From NCBI RefSeq assembly GCF_016903815.1, contig NZ_CP069973.1: 64,000 nucleotides of DNA; one strand, given 5' to 3'. Position 1 is the first letter of the stretch. Each line of letters starts with the position of its first letter. This document shows positions 18,802 to 50,884 of the stretch, in pieces. The translations under genes were made by a program, and so were the position numbers. The DNA is from Escherichia coli. GTDB taxonomy: Bacteria; Pseudomonadota; Gammaproteobacteria; Enterobacterales; Enterobacteriaceae. Below the pieces are notes generated by a model. That model did no database searches, was not told the DNA's origin, and worked only from the letters and a program-made list of their open reading frames with translations.

Positions 18802-18877
18802 GCCCGGATAGCTCAGTCGGTAGAGCAGGGGATTGAAAATCCCCGTGTCCTTGGTTCGATTCCGAGTCCGGGCACCA
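18802..18877 (+). tRNA. pheV: tRNA-Phe (GAA anticodon)
   Basis: 76-nt cloverleaf gcccggatagctcagtcggtagagcaggggattgaaaatccccgtgtccttggttcgattccgagtccgggcacca; position after yqgA. Confidence 0.95.
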
Positions 18878-35972: not shown

Positions 35973-36214
35973 AAAATGCATCGGTTGATCTCGATGGAAG
36001 GACACAACTGATAGATCATGTTCTTGGACTTCTTACTGAATACGGCATTGTGTTCAGTAAAAGCGCAACAGAATTACGCCCCAAATTACCGGCATTACTT
36101 GAGGATGCGGCGATGCTGTACCTGCGGATTGGTACATGCCGTCTGAACAATATGGCTCCAGAAAAATGGCTGTGAACCGCCCCGGGTTTCCTGGAGAGTG
36201 TTTTATCTGTGAAC

Positions 36215-37105
36215 TCAGGCTGCCAGATCATCGTTTCCGATGGAAGCATAATAAGCTTTTTCTGCTTCTGCCGGAGGAGTATGGCCCAGCCTTCCCAGCA
36301 ATCGTCGATTGTTATACCAGTCCACCCACGTTAGTGTGGCCAGTTCCACTTCTGCACGGTTTTTCCAGCTCTTACGGTGTATTACCTCCGCTTTGTAAAG
36401 ACCATTGATGCTCTCAGCCATCGCGTTGTCATACGAGTCGCCTGTACTCCCTGTTGATGCCAGTAATCCGGCTTCTTTTAGTCGCTCCGTATAGGCCAGT
36501 GACACATACTGAGAGCCTTTATCGCTGTGATGGATGGTGCCAGACGGACGACGGGCCCACAACGCCTGCTCCAGCGCATCCAGCACGAATGTCGTTTCCA
36601 TAGACGATGAGACCCGCCACCCCACGATGTATCCGGCAAACACATCAATGATAAACGCCACATAGACGAAGCCCTGCCATGTGCTGACGTAAGTAAAATC
36701 AGCCACCCACAGCTGGTCAGGTCGTTCTGCCACGAACTGACGGTTTACGCGGTCGCCTGCGGCAACGGCTTTCCGGCTGATGGTCGTACGGACCTTTTTA
36801 CCCCGGAGAACACCGGCAAGTCCCATAACCGCCATGAGACGTGCCACTGTACATCTGGCCACCCTGATTCCTTCCCGTAACAACTGACGCCAGACTTTAC
36901 GCACACCGTACACCTGATGATTTTCATCGTATACGCGCTGTATCTCTCTCTTCAGCCAGTCGTCGTGCTGCGCACGGGCACTGCGTTTATCCGGATGATG
37001 TCGCTGTTGCTGACAATGGTAATACGTTGACGGGGCAATATGCAGTTCGCTGCATACCGGTCCGACCCCGTACTGCTCACGCAGCTTATCCAGCAGTGGC
37101 ATCAT
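36215..37105 (-). CDS. insF: IS3 transposase OrfB (DDE integrase domain)
   Basis: 296-aa translation recognised as IS3 InsF. Confidence 0.85.
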
Positions 37106-37428
37106 TTTTTCCAGAGGCGGTCGAACTCCGCCTTCGCAAAATAAGCGGAAGCCTGGCGAAGGATATCGTTACTGCGGCGCAGTTCACGATTTTCACGTTC
37201 CAGCTCTTTCAGACGCTGACGTTCAGCGCTGGTGAGCCCACCATCACCGCCCCCGGTATCCCGCTCATGCTGGCGAACCCAGACACGCAGAGTCTCCGGC
37301 GTACAGCCAATCTTTGGAGCAATGGAACAAATTGCCGCCCACTGTGAGTCATATTCATCCTGACTTTCCAGAACCATACGAATCGCCCGCTGACGGACTT
37401 CGGGGGAAAAACGAGTATTTTTAGTCAT
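37102..37428 (-). CDS. insE: IS3 transposase OrfA (HTH)
   Basis: 108-aa translation [20 protein letters not shown]... recognised as IS3 InsE. Confidence 0.85.
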
Positions 37429-37453
37429 CCTGTTTACCTCTTTCTCAGGGAGT

Positions 37454-40400
37454 TTAGTCTCCAGGATTTCCGGGGCGGTTCAGCTGTTCATTAAAACGTT
37501 GTCCAGGCTGATCATAAAGTGCGCGTAATGTCTCCGCGGATGGCCGCGGTTGCATTTGCTGCATGCAGGGTTTCTGGTGGTAATCAAAATACTGTGGCAG
37601 ATGCTGGATCTCTGCTTTGTTTTCAATTACCCGTTGAAGGGCTCTTTGACGCAACTCTCTTGATGATTTGTCACGGATCGATTCCAATTGTAGCTGGCTG
37701 CCGCTACTAATTCGCTTACGAGCAGCATCAAAATCAAAGCGAATAGCCAATAGACTCGGCGTAGTCTCACTTAGCTGCAATTCCCCTAATTGCACTGATT
37801 CACGCTTATCTTTAATATAAACAATGATCTTATCATCAAGTTCAAAGCTGAGGTCAGCACCGGATTCCGTAGTATATGGGTAGAGTAAGCAACCACTCGG
37901 TGATTCCTGAAAGTCAGTAGAGTCGATGTTGACTATATCTCGTAGGTCTACTTCTGTATCAGATAATGCCTGCCATAACTCAATTGGGCTTGACTCACTA
38001 CTATCGAAGTCATCTTCATCCATCTCTTGATTAGGATTAGCTCGCTCAATGATGGCATCAATTACTGGCTCGAGGTTAAACAGTAGTTCAATAAAAGTAT
38101 TACGCTGATTAAGTGAGCCACGTTGTAATGAAAGTTGAGTATTAATTTTAGCCTGGGAATATTTACCAGCCTTTATACTTTCTTCGATCGATAATCCTTT
38201 TTCATACACTATTCTATTAATAGTGCGATTATCAGGATCTAAGTCTATCAATAGCCGCTCTCCTAGGCCAGTGATGTAACAACGCAATTCATGCGCAAAG
38301 CGTGGGTTAGATGACCAGTTACATTGAAAATAATAGATCCCATCATTTTGTTCTAGAAGCTTCACTTCTTGCGGCCAATCATCTGTGCCCCAGCAAACAG
38401 GAATTACCTTATCCTGTGACTCAGACGCCACAACTTGATTAATCTCAGCTTGTTCCGGTGCTCGAATTGACTGCAGCAAAGGATCGAGCGCGATAGGTAT
38501 ACCGTCAACGGTTTGTTTTGCGCGTTCTAGCTCAGCCTGCACCAGTACTGGCATATCTTCACTAAATAGCTCCTCCACCATACGATATACTGCAAAGCAA
38601 TCTCGCCCAAAAGCATCAGTACTTTCGGGATTCTCTGGCTGGTAGCGATTATCTGCAGTTAATTCATCACTGAATTCAAGCAATCCAATCAGAGTAATTA
38701 CTGTCTGCTCCCCGACTTGTACCAGCAGTTTCTCTGGGCAAAGATCTCCATGAGGTAACTGCTTTTCATGAAAAGCATGAATGGTGTTGATCAACTTTTC
38801 CGCAATTGTAAAACGTTGGGATTGTACTAACACGTTCTCAGCAATAAACTGTGACCACGGTAGGCCATCCACATACTCGCTCACTACATACAAGCCGCCT
38901 TGTCCTAATAGTCCATAGGACTGCACCTTAGGAGTTGGCAGATTTATATGCGTAAGCTTATCGATCCGTTGCTTAAAAGCGTGGATACGGCGGTTAACAC
39001 CAGGTTGTTGAGGGGTCAAAATAACACCATCCCACAATTTTACCTGCAGAGCTTTCCCACCTTGTTCACAGTGATAACTGATGCTGCCAGTCGTAGCAAT
39101 AGCAGCAAGAGCAGAGTAAACCATAGACAACTGTTCAGGAAGTGGAGGAAACTCAATTAACACACCAACGCTGTTCATCCCTTCGCGAAAGAATTTGTTT
39201 TGCTTTAATTCTTGATAAATCTGGTTAGCTTCATCAAATTCTTGGCTATGTTCCTTAGTAGCTGCATTAAACTCATTGAGCATTATGTCCGCACGTGGAA
39301 AGCGTTTACTTGGCTCAAGGTTAAGAGCTTGCTCAAACCAGCTATTTAGAATACCGCTAAAAGGATCAGTTAATGGAGCTCTCCATTCAGGCATCTGTCC
39401 AGGAGTCAGTAATGATTCACCTGCAAAACAAATACGATAAGCAATTACAGCCAACATGAATACATCTAGGCGATAGGGCTCAACTGCTTCTTCAAAAGCA
39501 TCTTCGGGCAAAATATATGGAGCACTTTGCAATGTCGGACGCAATGACTCTAGGCTATTATGTCCCTCCAGTGAGGCTGCGCCAAAGCCAGTAACGACAA
39601 TGCTCTTCTGATCCCCTGCGTACCATAGATTGTGCGGGTCAATATCACAATGACTGATACCCAAGCTATGTAATTCCGAGAATGGAGCTAATAATGCACG
39701 AACGCGATCAATACGCTCAGATTTACTCCATCCGTCAGCTTCGCTATCTAGAATCTCATCTAATCGGCTAAAACTACGGCGTAACTCATACAGCTCACGG
39801 GCATCATCAGTTATATCCTCCTCGGATAGTTCCCTTACAGCACGCAACATATAATCCTGCATAGTTGCGCTGCCATGACGAACTAGGCGACCGACTCGAG
39901 TCTCACGCAGAGCTATCTCAGCCCACAATGTTTGCATTGCGTTTGCTACACCCAAGGCATCAAAGTTCCACTGCCGTAGCAGACCTCTGTGTTGACTATT
40001 GTCTTTGTGGGTAGCCCTGAATTCGTTGTAGACCATGTGAGGGTGACTAAAGAATGGCTTATCGTTCGCAAGATAACCGCTTTCTTTTAGTGGCAAAGGC
40101 CTGACTTTTGGTCCTTCAAAGAAGGACTTAATTATAGGTAATGCCTCATCAGAATTTGGTCGAGGCTTTCCCCCTTCAAAAAGATGAAAAAAGTTAGTGT
40201 GTTGCACCAGCTTTTCGTAATTTTTTGGGTTACCTATAGTCAAGAATTCATCACGGGTATGAACATAGCGCCTCTCACTTAATGGCAAGTTTTCAGGACC
40301 AGCTGTGCCACACAGCACTACATGAGCCTCAACATGCAAAAAGTAACCCAGCTTACGAGATAACTCTTCCTGCAACAAATCTTTTAGTCGCAGTGCATGC

Positions 40401-40678
40401 TCACGCTTGATCTGATAGGGACTTTTGCCTCGTGACTTACCATTTTGCAGCCACTTCCCCCCTTCAAATGTGATGTTACCATTCCACTCTTTAAGCTCGA
40501 CTAATAGCAGACGGTCAGCAGTAATAATTAGCATATCGATTTCCATCGACCCTTGGCTATCAGTAACAACTAAGCCAGCATAGCCAAACCAACTATCTGG
40601 TAACTGCTTAACCATCATATCAACTGTTTTGGTTTCGCTGCGGTGCAGGCCAGCACCACCTACTATCTGATACTTCAC
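37454..40678 (-). CDS. 1074-aa protein with N-terminal NERD-like nuclease domain and two protein-kinase-like regions; 3' end runs into IS3
   Basis: NERD-like motif [21 protein letters not shown]; kinase catalytic-loop-like motifs [10 protein letters not shown] and [10 protein letters not shown]; last about 9 codons and stop lie inside the IS3 inverted repeat. Confidence 0.7.
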
Positions 40679-40885: not shown

Positions 40886-41042
40886 AAGATGCGAACACCA
40901 CATCTTGTGCCACTCAGCAAACAGGCTGTAGCCATACTGATAAAACTTCAGACATGGGCAGTTGAAAATGGTCTGGTCTTTACGGGAGCACATGACCCGC
41001 GTAAACCAATCAGCGAAAACACCGTAAATAAGGCCCTTAGGT
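40886..41042 (+). pseudogene. integrase gene fragment (about 157 bp copy of 19903-20060)
   Basis: Near-identical by eye to the internal segment of the integrase at 19075-20337. Confidence 0.7.
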
Positions 41043-41145
41043 GCCCTTGAACCACTATATCCAGACAGCCGTTGAGCTTAAGTTAACGTTACCGAGTGAC
41101 GTTGATATTCCCTCGGTGAGAGATAACCAAGGCACCATGAGGATG

Positions 41146-41773
41146 CTATTCGTTATAGTGTTCGAACGCCTCCGCAAGGTTTTTTACTGCCGTTAACACG
41201 TCCGGTTTAGGTATGATACTGATGTAATCGCTCTTCATCGTTTTCACGAACCGTTCTCTCATTCCATTACTCTGAGGGCTACTGACTGCCGTCGTGCAGA
41301 GCTCCAGATTCAACTCTCTGGCGAACTGCCGTGTTTCATGAGTTGTATAAGCCGAACCGTTATCGGTCAGCCACTGGATGGGCCATCCCGGTCTATCGCC
41401 AAAGCGTTTTTCTATCGCTCCTGACATGACATCCTGCACCGTTGCTTTGCCATAACCTCCCGTGCTTGCGGCCCAGTCTATGGATTCAAGATCGCAACAG
41501 TCCAGTGCGAACGTGACACGCAGTTTTTCGTCATCATCACAACCGAACTCAAAGCCATCGGCACACCAGCGCGGGTCGCTTTCCTTCACCGATATTCGGG
41601 CCTTTATGTTCCCTCTGCGGTCGTGAAGGTTTGTCATGTAATAACAACAGGTTATTCTCGCTCATTATTCGATAAACGCGATTTGCATTCACGAACTGCA
41701 GTCCTTCGTTAAGACTGCCGTCTGAGAATAGCCCGGACACGACGATAGCCATCGAATCGCTGAACAGCGTCAT
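41146..41773 (-). pseudogene. IS2-like (IS3 family) transposase OrfB remnant, frameshifted
   Basis: Translation resembles IS2 InsD ([32 protein letters not shown]...AEAFEHYNE); split over two frames. Confidence 0.6.
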
Positions 41774-41879
41774 TCGGCAGGCGATAAAGAAGGTGTCGTT
41801 ACGGGGAAGTCATCTTCACAGAGATTTTCAGTCAGTTAGCATTACCGACATTCATTCACCAACTTACCGGAGATAATCA

Positions 41880-42209
41880 ATGTCAAAACCCCGATGGACC
41901 ATTGAACAGAAAAGGCAGCACGTTGCTGCCTGGCGCGCCAGTGGTCTTACACGTCAGCAATACTGTGAACTCAACGATATTCCCTTCACATCACTTCGCG
42001 AATGGCCGCAGGATGTCGCAAAAGCTGAACGCCGGGCAAATGAACCGACCGTTCTTCCCGTTCATATTGCGCCACCACTGCATGCTGATGTACCACAGCC
42101 CGTCACGAATGAGCCAGTCACGCTCTTCCTTCCCGGCGGAGTACGGATGTGCTGTCAGCCGTCACAACTTACCGATGTCTTCAGGGCGCTCAAATATGCT
42201 CAGTCCTGA
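41880..42209 (+). CDS. IS66-family accessory protein Orf1 (TnpA)
   Basis: Small HTH-like ORF preceding the IS66 Orf2-like gene. Confidence 0.55.
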   Translation: MSKPRWTIEQKRQHVAAWRASGLTRQQYCELNDIPFTSLREWPQDVAKAERRANEPTVLPVHIAPPLHADVPQPVTNEPVTLFLPGGVRMCCQPSQLTDVFRALKYAQS

Positions 42210-42588
42210 TAATGTCTTCATCGCGATTAAACCTGTTGACATGCGCCGGGGCATCGACACACTGACGCAGTATATACAGGATGAACTCCGGTCGACATGG
42301 CATGAGGGAGCCGCCTTCGTCTTTGTTAACAAAGTCCGTTCGCGTATCAAAGTTCTCCGGTGGGATAAACACGGGGTGTGGTTGTGTACCCGCCGTCTGC
42401 ACAAAGGCAGCTTCCGCTGGCCACGTGCAAATGATGCTGCCTGGCACCTAACTCCCGACGAGTTTAACTGGCTGATTGCCGGTGTTGACTGGCAGCAGGT
42501 TAAGGGACATGACCTGACGAAATGGGGCTGGCAGAATGAACCTGAACTGCGCCCTGAAAACACGCAAAATACACTGCTAACTCAGTGA
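42196..42588 (+). CDS. IS66-family Orf2 (TnpB)
   Basis: Translation MLSPDNVFIAIKPVDMRRGIDTL...RLHKGSFRWP typical of IS66 Orf2. Confidence 0.7.
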   Translation: MLSPDNVFIAIKPVDMRRGIDTLTQYIQDELRSTWHEGAAFVFVNKVRSRIKVLRWDKHGVWLCTRRLHKGSFRWPRANDAAWHLTPDEFNWLIAGVDWQQVKGHDLTKWGWQNEPELRPENTQNTLLTQ

Positions 42589-42594
42589 AAAATA

Positions 42595-43480
42595 ATGAAT
42601 ATCCGTATCTGGAGTGGTATACTCCCCTGTATGGATATCTCCGCTCTCAACACCACGAATGACATCGAAAAACTGCGTGCTATGGCACTTACCATGGTAC
42701 AAAAAGTCATGTCGGAGAATGCCGAAAAAGAGCGGGAATTACTGGAGAAAAGCCGGCGCATCCAGCTTCTGGAAGAAATGCTGAAACTGGTTCGTCAACA
42801 GCGCTTCGGTAAAAAATGTGAAACGCTGGCTGGTATGCAACGCTCCCTGTTCGAAGAGGATGTTGATGTCGATATCGCCGCGCTTACCGCACATCTGGAT
42901 AAACTGCTCCCGCAATCCCCTGAAGAAGACGAAAAAGCGTCCCGTTCACGCCCGATACGCAAACCCTTACCGGCTCATCTTCCACGGGTGGAAAAAATTA
43001 TCCAGCCGGACACTGACCATTGCCCTGAATGTGACGAGCCGCTGCACTATATCCGTGATGCGGTGAGTGAAAAGCTGGAGTATATTCCCGTTCACTTCGT
43101 GGTGAACCGTTATGTCCGTCCGCAATACAGTTGTTCCTGTTGCCAGAAGGTGTTCAGCGGTGAAATGCCGGCACATATCCTCCCGAAAAGTGCCGTTGAG
43201 CCATCAGTCATCGCACAGGTGATCATCAATAAATACGGTGACCACCTGCCTCTGTATCGCCAGCAACAGGTCTTTGCCCGTTCAGTGTCGGGCTGCCCGT
43301 CAGTTCGATGGCTGACATGGTTGGCGCGGCGGGTGCCGCATTATCTCCCCTGGCGGCGTTACTCCATCGCGAGTTGATAAACCGTCCGGTGGTGCATGCA
43401 GATGAGACTACCCTGAAGATCCTGAACACTAAGAAAGGCGGTAAATCCTGCTCCGGTTATCTGTGGGCAACCAGCCTTCC
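42595..43480 (+). pseudogene. IS66-family transposase (TnpC), frameshifted and 3'-truncated
   Basis: Zn-ribbon CPECDEPL ... CSCCQKV, then HADETTLKILN in another frame; homology ends near 43480. Confidence 0.65.
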
Positions 43481-44274
43481 GCCTCGTCCGGATCCGCTGT
43501 TTCCAGTGTCATCAGGAGCCGGCTGCATGCTTCCCCTGCCGTTTTACCCAGCGTGGCCCGCTGCGAAAGACGGATGCGGTTTCCGGCACCCAGCCCACTG
43601 CGGTTATCGATATGGACCTTAACCGGATCGGGTTCGGTGATAAGTGCGCGGGTATCCGGTGCCAGCAGACTCACCAGAGCCCGGATGCCTTCAGCATTGC
43701 GGGTGGGTAATCGCATGGCACCCAGTAAGGCCAGGAAACGGGAAACCGGCGTTGCCACCTGTTCAGCGGTGCCGGGTATACCGAGTCCGACCAGTCCCAG
43801 CAGACACTGCGATGTGGCATCGCGCCCCCCCTCCTCGAAAGTGGCCGGATACGCATATTTTCGCCAGATCCGGTAGTACTGGGTGGTGATGCGGTGGCTG
43901 AAAATATCCAGAAATGAGGTGAGCGCCTCATGTCCTTCACGGCGCTGCGCAATATCATCCAGCCAGGACGTCGGCAGAGGTGAGTCCACCCCATACATTC
44001 CGAGAAATGTCGTGCGGATCGTTGGGGGTAATGTCGGACGGTCTTCGTCGATCTCCACCGCTTTCAGGGTGCTGACCGGGAATCCCATCCCGGGCCAGGG
44101 CCTGAATCGCACCGGGTCATCGCCCGGATGGCTGGTCGTGCCCAGTTTTGGCCCGTCCGGATTTTCCAGCTCCAGCAGCTGGCAGAAACGATAAAAACTG
44201 GCCCGCCAGATATCGTTGTTAAGGGCCAGGGCCTGCGTCAGCCCGGTACGTGCTGGCTGTGATTCTCTTTTCAT
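43429..44274 (-). CDS. tssG: type VI secretion baseplate protein TssG, C-terminally truncated
   Basis: N-terminal FYRFCQLLELE...DPVRFRPWPGMGFPVS pattern of TssG; abuts IS66 remnant. Confidence 0.6.
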   Translation of the reverse strand: MKRESQPARTGLTQALALNNDIWRASFYRFCQLLELENPDGPKLGTTSHPGDDPVRFRPWPGMGFPVSTLKAVEIDEDRPTLPPTIRTTFLGMYGVDSPLPTSWLDDIAQRREGHEALTSFLDIFSHRITTQYYRIWRKYAYPATFEEGGRDATSQCLLGLVGLGIPGTAEQVATPVSRFLALLGAMRLPTRNAEGIRALVSLLAPDTRALITEPDPVKVHIDNRSGLGAGNRIRLSQRATLGKTAGEACSRLLMTLETADPDEAEGWLPTDNRSRIYRLS

Positions 44275-45929
44275 CTCAGTCGTTTCCCTGTGGGTTGCAG
44301 TACCAGTGTGAGCTGGTTGAAAAGGTGAACATCAGCATAGAGCGCAAAGAAACGGTGCAGCATCTCCCCGAAGAGATTCACATCGCCCTCGCCGGCAAAA
44401 TTATCCATATTCAGCGTGACCTCAATGTCCACGCCACGGAGCATAAAGCCCTTTTCAAAACGGCGGATCAGGGTGTGCTTCACAGCAACGATGGCTTCAA
44501 GCCGGCGGCGGTTCATTTCATCGTCGGTCCAGTCATAGAGCGCCAGCGTCCCCCGCAGCACCTCCGGATTGTCCATCATGCTGAGAAAGTTTGATCCGAG
44601 GTGACTCATCACCCGCCAGTGAAACCGGTCATTTGCCGGGGGATACAGTGGCATCGTCGGTGCGGTCAGGTTCAGGACTCTGACGGGGACTTTGCCGGTT
44701 TTGACCACCCTGTCCAGGAGCGTACTTTCCAGCGCCCTGCGCGGAAGCTGCCCGTTGGTCGCGGTGATTCGCATCGAGAGGGACTCCGGTTTATCGGACA
44801 ACTGCTCCAGCTCGAACGAACGCCCCCCGAGAACTAACCATGTGTCATACAGGCCGGAGGGTCCCCGTTTCACACGGGTGTGGTAATAACGTTCAGGAGC
44901 ATCGTGGCGCATCATACCGCCCCGGTGCCGGAAGCTGGTGAACGGGACATAAGGGTGTCTGCCGTTCTTCACCGAGCCGTGAATGTTATCGACGCTGTAA
45001 ATTTCGGTGTGACCATCCTGAAGACGCAGCGGCCTGAGCAGGTACTCGTTATCCAGCGGGTTAAGGATCAGCGGGTCGGCTTCCAGGGTAAAGAGATTGA
45101 TAACCGGCGCACAGTGCAGGCGGAAGTTTTCTGTCTCAAAAGGCAAACCGGATGACCAGGCTTCACTGAGCACAATGTCGATTTCAAACCAGGTACTGGC
45201 CGCAGTGAGCCCAATGGTGTCGAGGCCGCGCAGTTCAACAAACATAAACTTCGGACGGAAGCTGAAATACTCCAGCAGCAACTGGTAACCACTGAAGGCT
45301 GTATCAGCTTTCTTCCACAGGCAGTCATTGTCGTCAAAGCCCATGGGTCTGCACCAGCCGTCAAACTGACGACGTCCGGTATATGTCCCGGCATGACGCG
45401 CATACATGGCATGTACACGCCGGGTCATTGCCAGATGTAGCGCAGCACTTACCGGCGCCTCTGCGTTAAGAAAAATGGCGACTTTGTCGATCCCGGCTTT
45501 ACTCCAGTCCACTTTTTCAGGGCATTCGAAGCGCAGACGGATAGCAGAGCGGCCATCGGATTCAGTATGGAGACGGGCATCTGCAAGGTGCAGCGGTTGT
45601 AGCAACACATCGCGGGTCGCCCGGTACTGGCAGGCGGTTTTATGCGGCCCGACAGGACGGGACAGAACGGAAAAGCCTTCAGCCAGTATTTCGGCCTGAC
45701 GCAGACTACGCCAGTCAGGCGAGAACTCAACGATGGCCAGCGACGGGATAGTCCGCATATAGTGCGGCCACAGCAGACTCACCAGACCTTCGGTGAGCTC
45801 CGGCAGGTCATCATCCAGCTTTTCACGCAAACGTCCCATCAGGAAGGCAAAGCCTTCAAACAGACGTTCCACACTGGGATCGCAGGCACCAGGCTTATCC
45901 AGATTCAGCATTGCTGACGTAATCCACAT
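44271..45929 (-). CDS. tssF: type VI secretion baseplate protein TssF (N-terminus possibly frameshifted)
   Basis: VERLFEGFAFLMGRLREKLDDDLPELTEGLVSLLWPHYMRTIPSLAIVEF pattern of TssF; upstream 73-aa ORF is in a different frame. Confidence 0.6.
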   Translation of the reverse strand: MWITSAMLNLDKPGACDPSVERLFEGFAFLMGRLREKLDDDLPELTEGLVSLLWPHYMRTIPSLAIVEFSPDWRSLRQAEILAEGFSVLSRPVGPHKTACQYRATRDVLLQPLHLADARLHTESDGRSAIRLRFECPEKVDWSKAGIDKVAIFLNAEAPVSAALHLAMTRRVHAMYARHAGTYTGRRQFDGWCRPMGFDDNDCLWKKADTAFSGYQLLLEYFSFRPKFMFVELRGLDTIGLTAASTWFEIDIVLSEAWSSGLPFETENFRLHCAPVINLFTLEADPLILNPLDNEYLLRPLRLQDGHTEIYSVDNIHGSVKNGRHPYVPFTSFRHRGGMMRHDAPERYYHTRVKRGPSGLYDTWLVLGGRSFELEQLSDKPESLSMRITATNGQLPRRALESTLLDRVVKTGKVPVRVLNLTAPTMPLYPPANDRFHWRVMSHLGSNFLSMMDNPEVLRGTLALYDWTDDEMNRRRLEAIVAVKHTLIRRFEKGFMLRGVDIEVTLNMDNFAGEGDVNLFGEMLHRFFALYADVHLFNQLTLVLQPTGKRLR

Positions 45930-46168
45930 TCAACAGTGCAATACGCAACCGTTCTTCCGGCCCTGCCTCTGTCTGCCGGCACTCATCCAGGACATCCTGC
46001 CATTGCCGGCGAAGACGGGGCGATTCATTCAGTTCTGTAAAACAGTATTTATCCGCCAGATAATCAATTCGTGTACGCATACTGAAAAGAATTCCGTATA
46101 AAGATTCAGCAGACAAAACTTTATCAGTCTGTAAAAATTAACGGAAGAGTCGATATTTCTCCCGGTCA

Positions 46169-46711
46169 TCACCGGATGATTGTTGCAATAACCAGTGGCA
46201 TCAGAGACTGAACAGCCGTTTTTAACGCAACGTATTGCTCTGATGTATCAGGCCGGGTAACCCGAAAACACCTTTCCACCCGACATTGTCCGCCCGTATC
46301 CATCCCCCGCCAGGTCTGCTGCAGTAAATCCACCACTTGCGAACATTGTTCATCAACTGTGACACTGGCTCGCGGGTGACAAATACTCGTCTGGCTGAGC
46401 AGCAACAGGCATCGCATTGTTGCTCCTCCATGTTGTTCCCGCAACCAGCGTAATACCACCGGCGATGATGGACTGGTCGTGTGATTACGCTCAGTAATAC
46501 GTTCATAAAAGGAAGTACAGAATGCATGAATCTGTTGCCCGTTGATGTTTCCTTCTGCCGAATGGAGCGTGAAGTGAAATGCCAGCAGACGCGGCCAGTG
46601 GTCCACCCCCTGCTGAACAAAACGCCGGATTTCCCCCGGCGCTGAAAGTAAGGCTTCGGTTATTTGCACTATTTTACCCCTGTGAATTTTGTTAAGCCGG
46701 TGCAGACACAC
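46169..46711 (-). CDS. hypothetical protein
   Basis: 180-aa ORF only; no recognisable motif. Confidence 0.3.
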   Translation of the reverse strand: MCLHRLNKIHRGKIVQITEALLSAPGEIRRFVQQGVDHWPRLLAFHFTLHSAEGNINGQQIHAFCTSFYERITERNHTTSPSSPVVLRWLREQHGGATMRCLLLLSQTSICHPRASVTVDEQCSQVVDLLQQTWRGMDTGGQCRVERCFRVTRPDTSEQYVALKTAVQSLMPLVIATIIR

Positions 46712-46936
46712 GGAAAACGCACATCAACACCAGCACAGTACGATACAAACACCAGTGACTGACGGGACGAAAGGAATAACGAATCAGTCAGGAAAGAGCT
46801 ACAACCTGCTGGCTGACCGGAGAGGGTCAGCAGGAAAATGAACGGTAATGTCGCCAGCACCAGGGACAGAGCTGATTTCCGCAATACCAGCGCCGGCATT
46901 TTGCACATTGCCAGCGTACCGGCATCACAACTCGTT

Positions 46937-50179: not shown

Positions 50180-50884
50180 ATGGCAAGATGTACAGCTCCT
50201 GTACGTGGACATAGCTCAGCAGCAGCTGCTGCTGCCTGTCCCGCATGTCGTAATCGCAGTGGTTATCGCCGCAGTAGCTACAGTTATGATAGTTACCCTT
50301 CTTACTCATCAGGCTCTAGCGGTGGCGGAAGTTATGGAGGCAGTAGCGGTGGTTCCAGCAGCAGCGCGAAGCCACGTTGGTCAAAATCAGGGTCTTCCGT
50401 TTCTTACACAACAGCCCAAGTACAATCACTCACACCAATTCGACAAGCGGTAGAGAAACTTGCCATTGAGCAACCTGATCTGCGTGATGTCTTTCTTTGC
50501 CATGCTTGGGATGACCGACAAGGTATTGCCAAAGAGTTACACGATTTGCTCGAAGCGGCAGGTGTCAAAGTATGGTTCAGCGAAAAGGATCTTGCCCTTG
50601 GTGTTCCGATGATGCGTGCCATTGATAAAGGATTAGCAAACTCTCGAATCGGCTTGGTTTTAGTGACACCTGCATTGTTAAACCGTCTTCCTAAAGAAGG
50701 CGTTGCTGATAAAGAACTTTCCGCCTTACTGGCAGGCAACCAACTCGTTCCCATCGTGCATAACACGACGTATGAAGCTCTCCGTAATGTCAGTCCTTTG
50801 CTTGCATCCCGAAGCGGCCTCGACACGGGAGAAGATACATTGGCAGTTGTTGCAACAAAAATTGCAGAGCTGATCACTGTTTAG
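50180..50884 (+). CDS. TIR-domain protein with Ser/Gly/Tyr-rich low-complexity N-terminus
   Basis: RBS aagggga then ATG; TIR-like motifs DVFLCHAWDD, VWFSEKDLALG, SRIGLVLVTPALL. Confidence 0.7.
   Translation: MARCTAPVRGHSSAAAAAACPACRNRSGYRRSSYSYDSYPSYSSGSSGGGSYGGSSGGSSSSAKPRWSKSGSSVSYTTAQVQSLTPIRQAVEKLAIEQPDLRDVFLCHAWDDRQGIAKELHDLLEAAGVKVWFSEKDLALGVPMMRAIDKGLANSRIGLVLVTPALLNRLPKEGVADKELSALLAGNQLVPIVHNTTYEALRNVSPLLASRSGLDTGEDTLAVVATKIAELITV

Follow-up and report, generated by a model that had tools for sequence, protein, structure and literature searches.

The tssF and tssG genes of this Escherichia coli pheV island are very probably an inert pseudogene relic of a T6SS cluster, left behind by two microhomology deletions and with no working mechanism. 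This is ordinary genome decay. The window (the whole 64-kb stretch of DNA that we analysed) has a tRNA-Phe at 18802–18877, which identifies it as a pheV island; this island is rich in IS elements. Strain 222 has essentially the same sequence (100% or 99.996% identity over the aligned blocks), and PGAP annotates tssG, tssF, the stub of an ECs1377-family gene, and the IS66 tnpC of that strain as incomplete pseudogenes. So the pseudogene status of all four pieces was already known from the reference annotation. We found no paper on this specific tssF-tssG relic, and Rfam had no match in the region.

The relic block lies on the minus strand at 43465–45916 (2,452 bp) and retains codons 32–589 of tssF and codons 1–270 (of 362) of tssG. 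The tssG homology spans 43465–44274 (minus strand) and the last 92 codons are gone; the open reading frame (43429–44274, minus strand, 281 aa) reads on past codon 270 into the IS66 element, where a stop at 43429 closes it. The tssF homology (44238–45916, minus strand, ending at the last of 589 codons) lacks the first 91 nucleotides of the gene, including the start codon. The native start and the ribosome-binding site are absent, and the open reading frame (44271–45929, minus strand, 552 aa) has a chance ATG at 45929.

Both genes are genuine T6SS genes and not phage baseplate genes. TssF matches the equivalog family TIGR03359 with 506 bits (E = 1.8e-151, profile positions 28–587 of 600) and TssG matches TIGR03347 with 204 bits (E = 2.1e-60, profile positions 2–252 of 300); the curated NCBIfam cut-offs for these equivalogs, 260 and 143 bits respectively, are far lower. 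Similarly, TssF matches PFam PF05947 (497 bits, cut-off 25) and TssG matches PF06996 (192 bits, cut-off 24.6). No phage family in PHROGs matched either protein at E ≤ 0.01. The best matches among solved structures are EAEC proteins: 6GIY_A for TssF (residues 31–576, 780 bits) and 6GIY_C for TssG (residues 21–271 of 366, 274 bits).

The pair is an orphan within the window. A functional T6SS locus has 13 core genes (tssA–M, including hcp, vgrG, and clpV), and the other 11 are missing: when we compared 30 proteins from an intact homologous cluster to the 64-kb window with tblastn, the only matches were to tssF, tssG, and the ECs1377-like gene. An earlier note on this DNA had reported TssF- and TssG-like translations without other core T6SS genes, and had read them as T6SS genes; it had placed the open reading frames correctly, and both statements hold up.

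Intact counterparts exist. Among 5,426 complete E. coli genomes, 24 have an intact cluster of the Sci-1/T6SS-1 type in a phe-tRNA island, with tssF-tssG ~97% identical to the relic, and 58 have the relic itself. In all 21 of the relic matches listed, the endpoints are the same (positions 1002–3453 of the reference query). We inspected two genomic islands with complete T6SS clusters, from SW070919 (pheU, NZ_CM129861; L002), which a tRNA-Phe adjoins, and from AH19B041 (NZ_CP196316; L008). The relic aligns to these without gaps over all 2,452 bp, with 97.3% and 97.7% nucleotide identity respectively. At the amino-acid level, TssF is 98.7% identical to intact TssF over residues 31–589 and TssG is 96.7% identical to intact TssG over residues 1–270. 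In both islands, the strand and order of tssF and tssG match those in the window, and an ECs1377-like gene of 207 amino acids lies on the same strand, ~1.1 kb past tssB. Beyond it is the same backbone as in the window (AlpA, inovirus-Gp2, a GTPase, and YeeU/CbtA).

Comparison with intact loci placed the two breakpoints at 45915–45916 and at 43465–43469. At each of them, two unrelated parents are truncated and have a few bases in common, which is the signature of a microhomology deletion. On the right, the bases in common to tssF and the ECs1377-family gene are TG (45915–45916), within a patchy 9/13 match. The 5' stub of the ECs1377-family gene (45917–46080, minus strand) has ~55 of the 207 codons. 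It matches NF052300 (E = 2e-16, profile positions 1–44 of 190) and, from 45912 onward, is 96% identical in nucleotide sequence to the intact gene in another locus (L007). The fused frame runs through 6 out-of-frame codons derived from tssF and then reaches a TAA at 45895–45897. The 73-aa open reading frame at 45895–46116 (minus strand) is the ECs1377-family stub joined to tssF by a deletion, and not TssF sequence. The earlier note had suggested that the TssF N-terminus was in a different frame from this open reading frame. The frames do differ (46116 − 45929 = 187, which is 1 modulo 3), but the N-terminus of TssF is not what the open reading frame encodes. The stretch lost here, from tssF codon 31 to codon ~55 of the ECs1377-family gene, measures ~24.4–24.7 kb (tssA to tssB).

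On the left, the relic is joined to an ISEc49-like element of the IS66 family that is truncated at its 3' end (41793–43469, plus strand; recognized by PFam LZ_Tnp_IS66, zf-IS66, and DDE_Tnp_IS66 and by PGAP in strain 222). It contains tnpA (41880–42209), tnpB (42196–42588), and a truncated and frameshifted tnpC that starts at 42631, and is 98% identical to a complete copy (L006, 1794–3471). We mapped the junction by ungapped side-by-side comparison of the complete IS (L006) and intact tssG (L002 and L008). Homology to complete copies of IS66 ends at 43469, ~840 nucleotides into the ~1565-nucleotide tnpC, and TssG homology ends at 43465; the 5 bp at 43465–43469 (GGGCA) are common to tnpC and tssG. 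Our search for terminal inverted repeats in the complete copy was not clean (18/30 at best), and we therefore state the position of the junction relative to the left end of the IS and to tnpC.

Because an IS66-family element directly abuts the truncated tssG, in an IS-rich island, we considered that IS66 transposition truncated the gene, either by insertion or by an adjacent deletion that was anchored at the IS end and removed the distal cluster. This is very unlikely. An intact terminal inverted repeat would be expected at the junction, but instead there are 5 bp of microhomology between two truncated partners. Furthermore, the break falls 1,678 bp into the element, in tnpC, of which about half has been lost together with the right end of the IS. 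There is no terminal inverted repeat abutting the gene along with a target-site duplication, as an insertion of IS66 should show. The sequence of the junction already contradicts a transposition, and the left end is a microhomology deletion junction rather than an IS end. So the earlier note was right that TssG ends at the IS66 remnant, but its description of the genes as "truncated by IS66" needs correcting: since the break is inside tnpC and not at the IS end, the IS66 element is adjacent to the truncated tssG and is not the mechanism of its truncation.

Could the island have never had a complete T6SS? The tssF-tssG piece might have arrived on its own, from a different replicon or another species, and been inserted between IS66 and the ECs1377-family gene. 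The GC content of the piece is 54–60%, versus 48% and 55% in the stretches on either side, and the left flank does not resemble the intact islands: we did not find a counterpart of its IS3 fragment, integrase fragment, and NERD-kinase gene in the intact islands that we examined. (When we searched with the int'/IS3'/IS66 segment, the same AAA-int'-IS3 module turned up in JNEC-KY172, followed by unrelated cargo, espI and iha; this arrangement is uninformative about the T6SS side.) But import of a fragment is highly improbable given that ~97% identical intact clusters exist in phe-tRNA islands of E. coli, and that, in the two islands inspected, tssF is oriented toward the ECs1377-like gene just as in the window, with the same backbone after it. 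Also, a single deletion explains the right junction exactly, while the best match to the relic in a plasmid collection has just 70% identity. The earlier note had described a decayed T6SS cluster captured in the island. The decayed cluster is there, but it decayed in place; it is better put that the island carried the entire cluster as cargo, and there is no sign that the piece was imported by itself.

We propose instead that two deletions within the pheV island produced the relic. The ancestral island would have carried a complete cluster of the Sci-1/T6SS-1 type as cargo, between a variable left part and a backbone module (ECs1377-family, AlpA, and YagK), with the minus-strand order tssB-C-K-L-tagL-hcp-clpV-vgrG...tssM-tssA-tssF-tssG-tssJ-vgrG...tssE. 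Two illegitimate-recombination deletions at short microhomologies would then have spared just the internal piece of 2,452 bp. The right deletion, of ~24.4–24.7 kb, would have run from tssF codon 31 across tssA...tssB and a DUF4222 gene to codon ~55 of the ECs1377-family gene. The left deletion would have run from tssG codon 270 across tssJ, vgrG, effector/immunity genes, and tssE to the middle of tnpC in the ISEc49-like element. Afterwards, descent or transfer of the island probably brought the relic into the 58 genomes, and the relic would now be gathering neutral damage. We infer the number and order of the deletions, rather than observing them, because we found no genome with an intermediate state of decay: a tssJ-tssG-tssF-tssA query gave either complete clusters or the full relic.

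The leftover genes are predicted to be unable to build a baseplate wedge, because tssF lacks its start and first 31 codons, because TssG lacks its last 92 residues, and because the window has none of the other 11 core genes. In EAEC TssG, the C-terminal domain comprises residues 179–365, and the loop 2 residues L308, L319, and M325 bind the TssK trimer (PMC6300606). The relic's TssG ends at the equivalent of EAEC residue ~271, so loop 2 (308–325) and part of the C-terminal sheet are beyond the break, and the C-terminal domain is incomplete and lacks one of the two TssK-binding loops. In the window, TssF is also cut short at its C-terminal end. A substitution at 44271 (T in the window; the two intact clusters and four other relic copies have C) creates a TGA at 44271–44273 that stops the TssF frame 11 codons early (W579*); the same change is E2K in TssG. 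This stop is specific to the window's lineage. Over 3,052 bp, the four other copies depart from the window's sequence at just 1–2 sites. Three sites vary in all, and at two of them the variant is a stop codon: W579* in the window, and one within the ECs1377 stub of strain GD33.

Apart from W579*, both frames are open over their retained length. We predicted no terminator-like site separating the relic from the island genes upstream of it (the scan for promoters and terminators gave counts at the level of shuffled sequence and is uninformative). With the open frames and the chance ATG, this means that the relic might be transcribed by read-through and partly translated. We can speculate that a clipped TssF and a TssG without loop 2 would then poison or modulate wedge assembly by another T6SS, or that the relic offers an incoming island a stretch of homology through which the cluster could be restored, but either role is most doubtful.

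The dN/dS of the relic versus intact genes is 0.03–0.05 for tssF and 0.16–0.20 for tssG, as compared to 0.04 and 0.16 between intact genes; since these are equal, the divergence is older than the deletion. That the truncated genes were kept for use, for instance to modulate another T6SS or to supply it with spare parts, is extremely improbable: the open frames, the identical endpoints, and the low dN/dS would fit, but the low dN/dS reflects history before the deletion, the near-identity of the copies means that conservation reflects recency, stops account for most of the variable sites, the native signals of tssF and one TssK-binding loop of TssG are gone, and blastn detects no second tssF-tssG in strain 222.

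Outside annotation, an inert relic is of little importance; programs that type T6SSs automatically should not score this locus as a T6SS. It is a cleanly mapped case of the loss of island cargo by two deletions at short microhomologies, one of which ends inside an IS. And the relic, with its identical endpoints, could mark the lineage of a pheV island variant.

Among known systems, the chromosomal T6SS-1 of E. coli at argA/amiC (as in APEC E12053) has the same order around tssA-tssF-tssG-tssJ-tssE. However, it has only ~70% nucleotide identity to the relic and is at a different chromosomal site, which rules it out as the source. pheV islands can have T6SS cargo: strain 55989 has a GI-pheV of the intP4.5 type with a T6SS (PMC11537424), although the 24 genomes in which we found the ~97% identical cluster do not include 55989. 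The Sci-1 T6SS of EAEC is also cargo of a phe-tRNA island, as it is encoded on the pheU pathogenicity island (PMC6730261). Its T6SS-1-type gene order is also found in the relic's intact relatives, and its baseplate TssF and TssG (PDB 6GIY, 6GJ1, and 6N38) are the relic's best structural matches, but their sequences have clearly diverged, and the relic lacks all of the partner genes. The intact clusters in phe-tRNA islands hold all of the core genes (tssA–M, hcp, vgrG, clpV, and PAAR) as well as effector/immunity pairs, while the window retains just an internal piece of two genes.

Three minus-strand ORFs, adjacent or overlapping, fill the interval: 281 aa at 43429–44274, 552 aa at 44271–45929, and 73 aa at 45895–46116. 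Judged by their sequences, the first two are unmistakably T6SS baseplate genes. The 281-aa product scores 204 bits against the TssG equivalog TIGR03347 of NCBIfam, which has a cut-off of 143, and also matches Pfam PF06996, and the 552-aa product matches the TssF family TIGR03359 (506 bits; cut-off 260) and PF05947, which confirms the TssF- and TssG-like translations described in the earlier note. Both matches are partial: TssF begins at profile position 28–32, and TssG ends near position 252 of 300. The nearest solved structures for both are the Sci-1 wedge proteins of enteroaggregative E. coli (EAEC), with TssF aligning to 6GIY_A over residues 31–576 (780 bits) and TssG to 6GIY_C over residues 21–271 of 366. 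A better match to phage baseplate proteins had been proposed as the refuting outcome; PHROGs returned no phage family for either protein, so this test fails to refute the identification. The earlier note had the TssF N-terminus apparently in a different frame from the upstream 73-aa ORF. That ORF is no frameshifted N-terminus of TssF; it is a different gene, matching the ECs1377 family (NF052300, profile positions 1–44, E = 2e-16).

The window has a tRNA-Phe at 18802–18877 and aligns with E. coli strain 222 (NZ_CP020516) at its pheV island, in blocks of 100% or 99.996% identity; strain 222 alone has an extra IS-rich block of ~12 kb. Using tblastn, we compared 30 translated genes of an intact homologous cluster to all 64 kb. 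Only tssF (residues 31–589), tssG (1–270), and the ECs1377-like gene (1–59) matched, and the remaining cluster proteins gave no match within the window. Thus, tssF and tssG do stand without the other core T6SS genes here: 11 are absent from the window. Within the relic interval, there was no Rfam match, and promoter and terminator scans of the region gave background levels only. (In the core chromosome flank, 6906–6976 matches Rfam naRNA4 (CssrE), barely over the gathering score.)

Elsewhere in the window, an IS1203 copy (36173–37482, with an ALIL pseudoknot at 37031–37147) adjoins a large NERD plus protein-kinase gene, all within 36173–40678, and shortens it to 1,074 aa. The counterpart in strain 222 is a full 1,652-aa "AAA domain" gene, and that strain also has the additional IS-rich DNA. 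This may be a defence-type gene. Also, a TIR-domain protein (PF13676, E = 3e-15) is encoded in an AT-rich stretch at 50180–50884, flanked by YagK/YfjJ and inovirus-Gp2-family genes.

Where did the relic come from? Across 5,426 complete E. coli genomes, blastn with tssF-tssG gave three classes of matches: 58 genomes at 99% identity or more, 24 at 95–99%, and ~1,350 at ~70%. Matches of the last class belong to the chromosomal T6SS-1 adjoining argA/amiC, which we rejected as the source at that identity. In a plasmid collection, the best match to the relic was also just 70% identical. The 24 genomes of the middle class contain the complete cluster, for instance SW070919 (in an island by tRNA-Phe, pheU context) and AH19B041. 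On the minus strand, their genes run tssB-tssC-tssK-tssL-ompA/tagL-hcp-clpV-vgrG-...-PAAR-...-tssM-tssA-tssF-tssG-tssJ-vgrG-effector/immunity-tssE. Over exactly 2,452 bp (43465–45916), the relic aligns ungapped to the clusters of SW070919 and AH19B041, at 97.3% and 97.7% identity. This ~97% identical T6SS is rare (24/5,426), and its lineage is separate from that of the common argA-locus system (~70% nucleotide identity). The two copies examined have different effector/immunity cargo, VRR-NUC/DUF3396 in one and Tox-REase-5/Imm52 in the other.

Comparison with intact E. coli loci, as the earlier note had suggested, mapped the breakpoints to 43465–43469 (left) and 45915–45916 (right). On the left, the window matches a complete ISEc49-like IS66 element (98% identity) from the left end of the IS, at 41793, as far as 43469; the match stops 1,678 bp into the element, after ~840 nt of tnpC. 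Homology to tssG starts at 43465, so the two overlap by GGGCA. Because the IS and tssG are both truncated, this end is a deletion junction rather than an IS end. IS66 does adjoin tssG, as had been noted, but it is not the agent of the truncation; it was itself cut by the deletion. Lost on this side were the 3' part of the IS and, at a minimum, tssJ, vgrG, the effector/immunity genes, and tssE. In strain cS100a, the same ISEc49-like IS directly adjoins an ECs1377-family pseudogene of which the 3' part is present (L006, 1335–2210); this is another, independent case of the IS lying beside a member of that family. The int'/IS3' module left of the relic has unrelated cargo behind it in another strain: in JNEC-KY172, the same AAA-int'-IS3 module lies ahead of espI/iha cargo. 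A P4-type integrase fragment (40886–41041) and a truncated IS3-family transposase gene, together at 40886–41773, lie mid-island and suggest that the island is composite or tandem.

On the right, tssF homology extends to 45916, and homology to an intact ECs1377-family gene (96% identity over 45912–46900) is clear from 45915 on. The junction is a TG common to both parents, within a patchy 9-of-13 match. In the intact islands, a DUF4222 gene, a small ORF, and a 207-aa ECs1377-like gene lie directly past tssB, the latter two sharing the strand of the T6SS genes. Projected on these islands, a single deletion of 24.4–24.7 kb accounts for the right end. It removes the first 91 nt of tssF, everything from tssA to tssB, the DUF4222 gene, and ~150 codons from the 3' end of the ECs1377-like gene. 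In the fused stub, 55 ECs1377 codons are followed by SNAESG and a stop. The 552-aa ORF opens with a chance start, an ATG at 45929 within ECs1377-derived sequence in a different frame, and no ribosome-binding site is obvious there.

Endpoints were identical (reference query 1002–3453) in 21 of 21 relic matches among the matches listed, and the same genome search found no intermediate decay state. Over 3,052 bp, the relics of four isolates (a human isolate from China, a Korean APEC, a Dutch O177:H21, and a Chinese duck isolate) each differ from the window at only 1–2 sites. In the window, a plus-strand C>T at 44271 changes TGG to TGA (TssF W579*) and also gives TssG E2K. Since the four other relics and both intact clusters all have C, this is a lineage-specific change that followed the deletion. 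In place of W579*, the relic of strain GD33 has gained a stop in the ECs1377 stub. Relic-versus-intact dN/dS (tssF 0.03–0.05, tssG 0.16–0.20) resembles intact-versus-intact dN/dS (0.04 and 0.16). Therefore, the 2.3–2.7% divergence arose before the genes lost their function, and the decay is recent.

We infer that the relic is non-functional, because tssF is truncated, TssG is cut, and 11 core genes are absent from the window. tssF has lost its first 31 codons, start included, and in this window also the final 11. TssG breaks off at a point corresponding to EAEC residue ~271. The C-terminal domain of EAEC TssG is residues 179–365, and its loop 2 (L308, L319, M325) binds one of two TssK trimers (PMC6300606). 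The view of the locus as what is left of an island's T6SS cluster after decay was right in substance, given the ~97% identical intact counterparts in phe-tRNA islands. Island cargo has here undergone ordinary reductive decay, and the pieces already carry pseudogene labels: in RefSeq (PGAP), strain 222 has pseudogenes for tssG (C-terminus missing), tssF (N-terminus missing), the hypothetical stub (C-terminus missing), and the IS66 transposase (frameshifted, C-terminus missing). T6SS cargo is also carried by the pheU PAI of EAEC (Sci-1 and Sci-2; PMC6730261) and by GI-pheV of strain 55989 (PMC11537424). Past the ECs1377-like gene, the intact islands continue with a backbone of AlpA, inovirus-Gp2, GTPase, DUF932, antirestriction, RadC, and YeeU/CbtA genes, which they have in common with the window beyond the relic.
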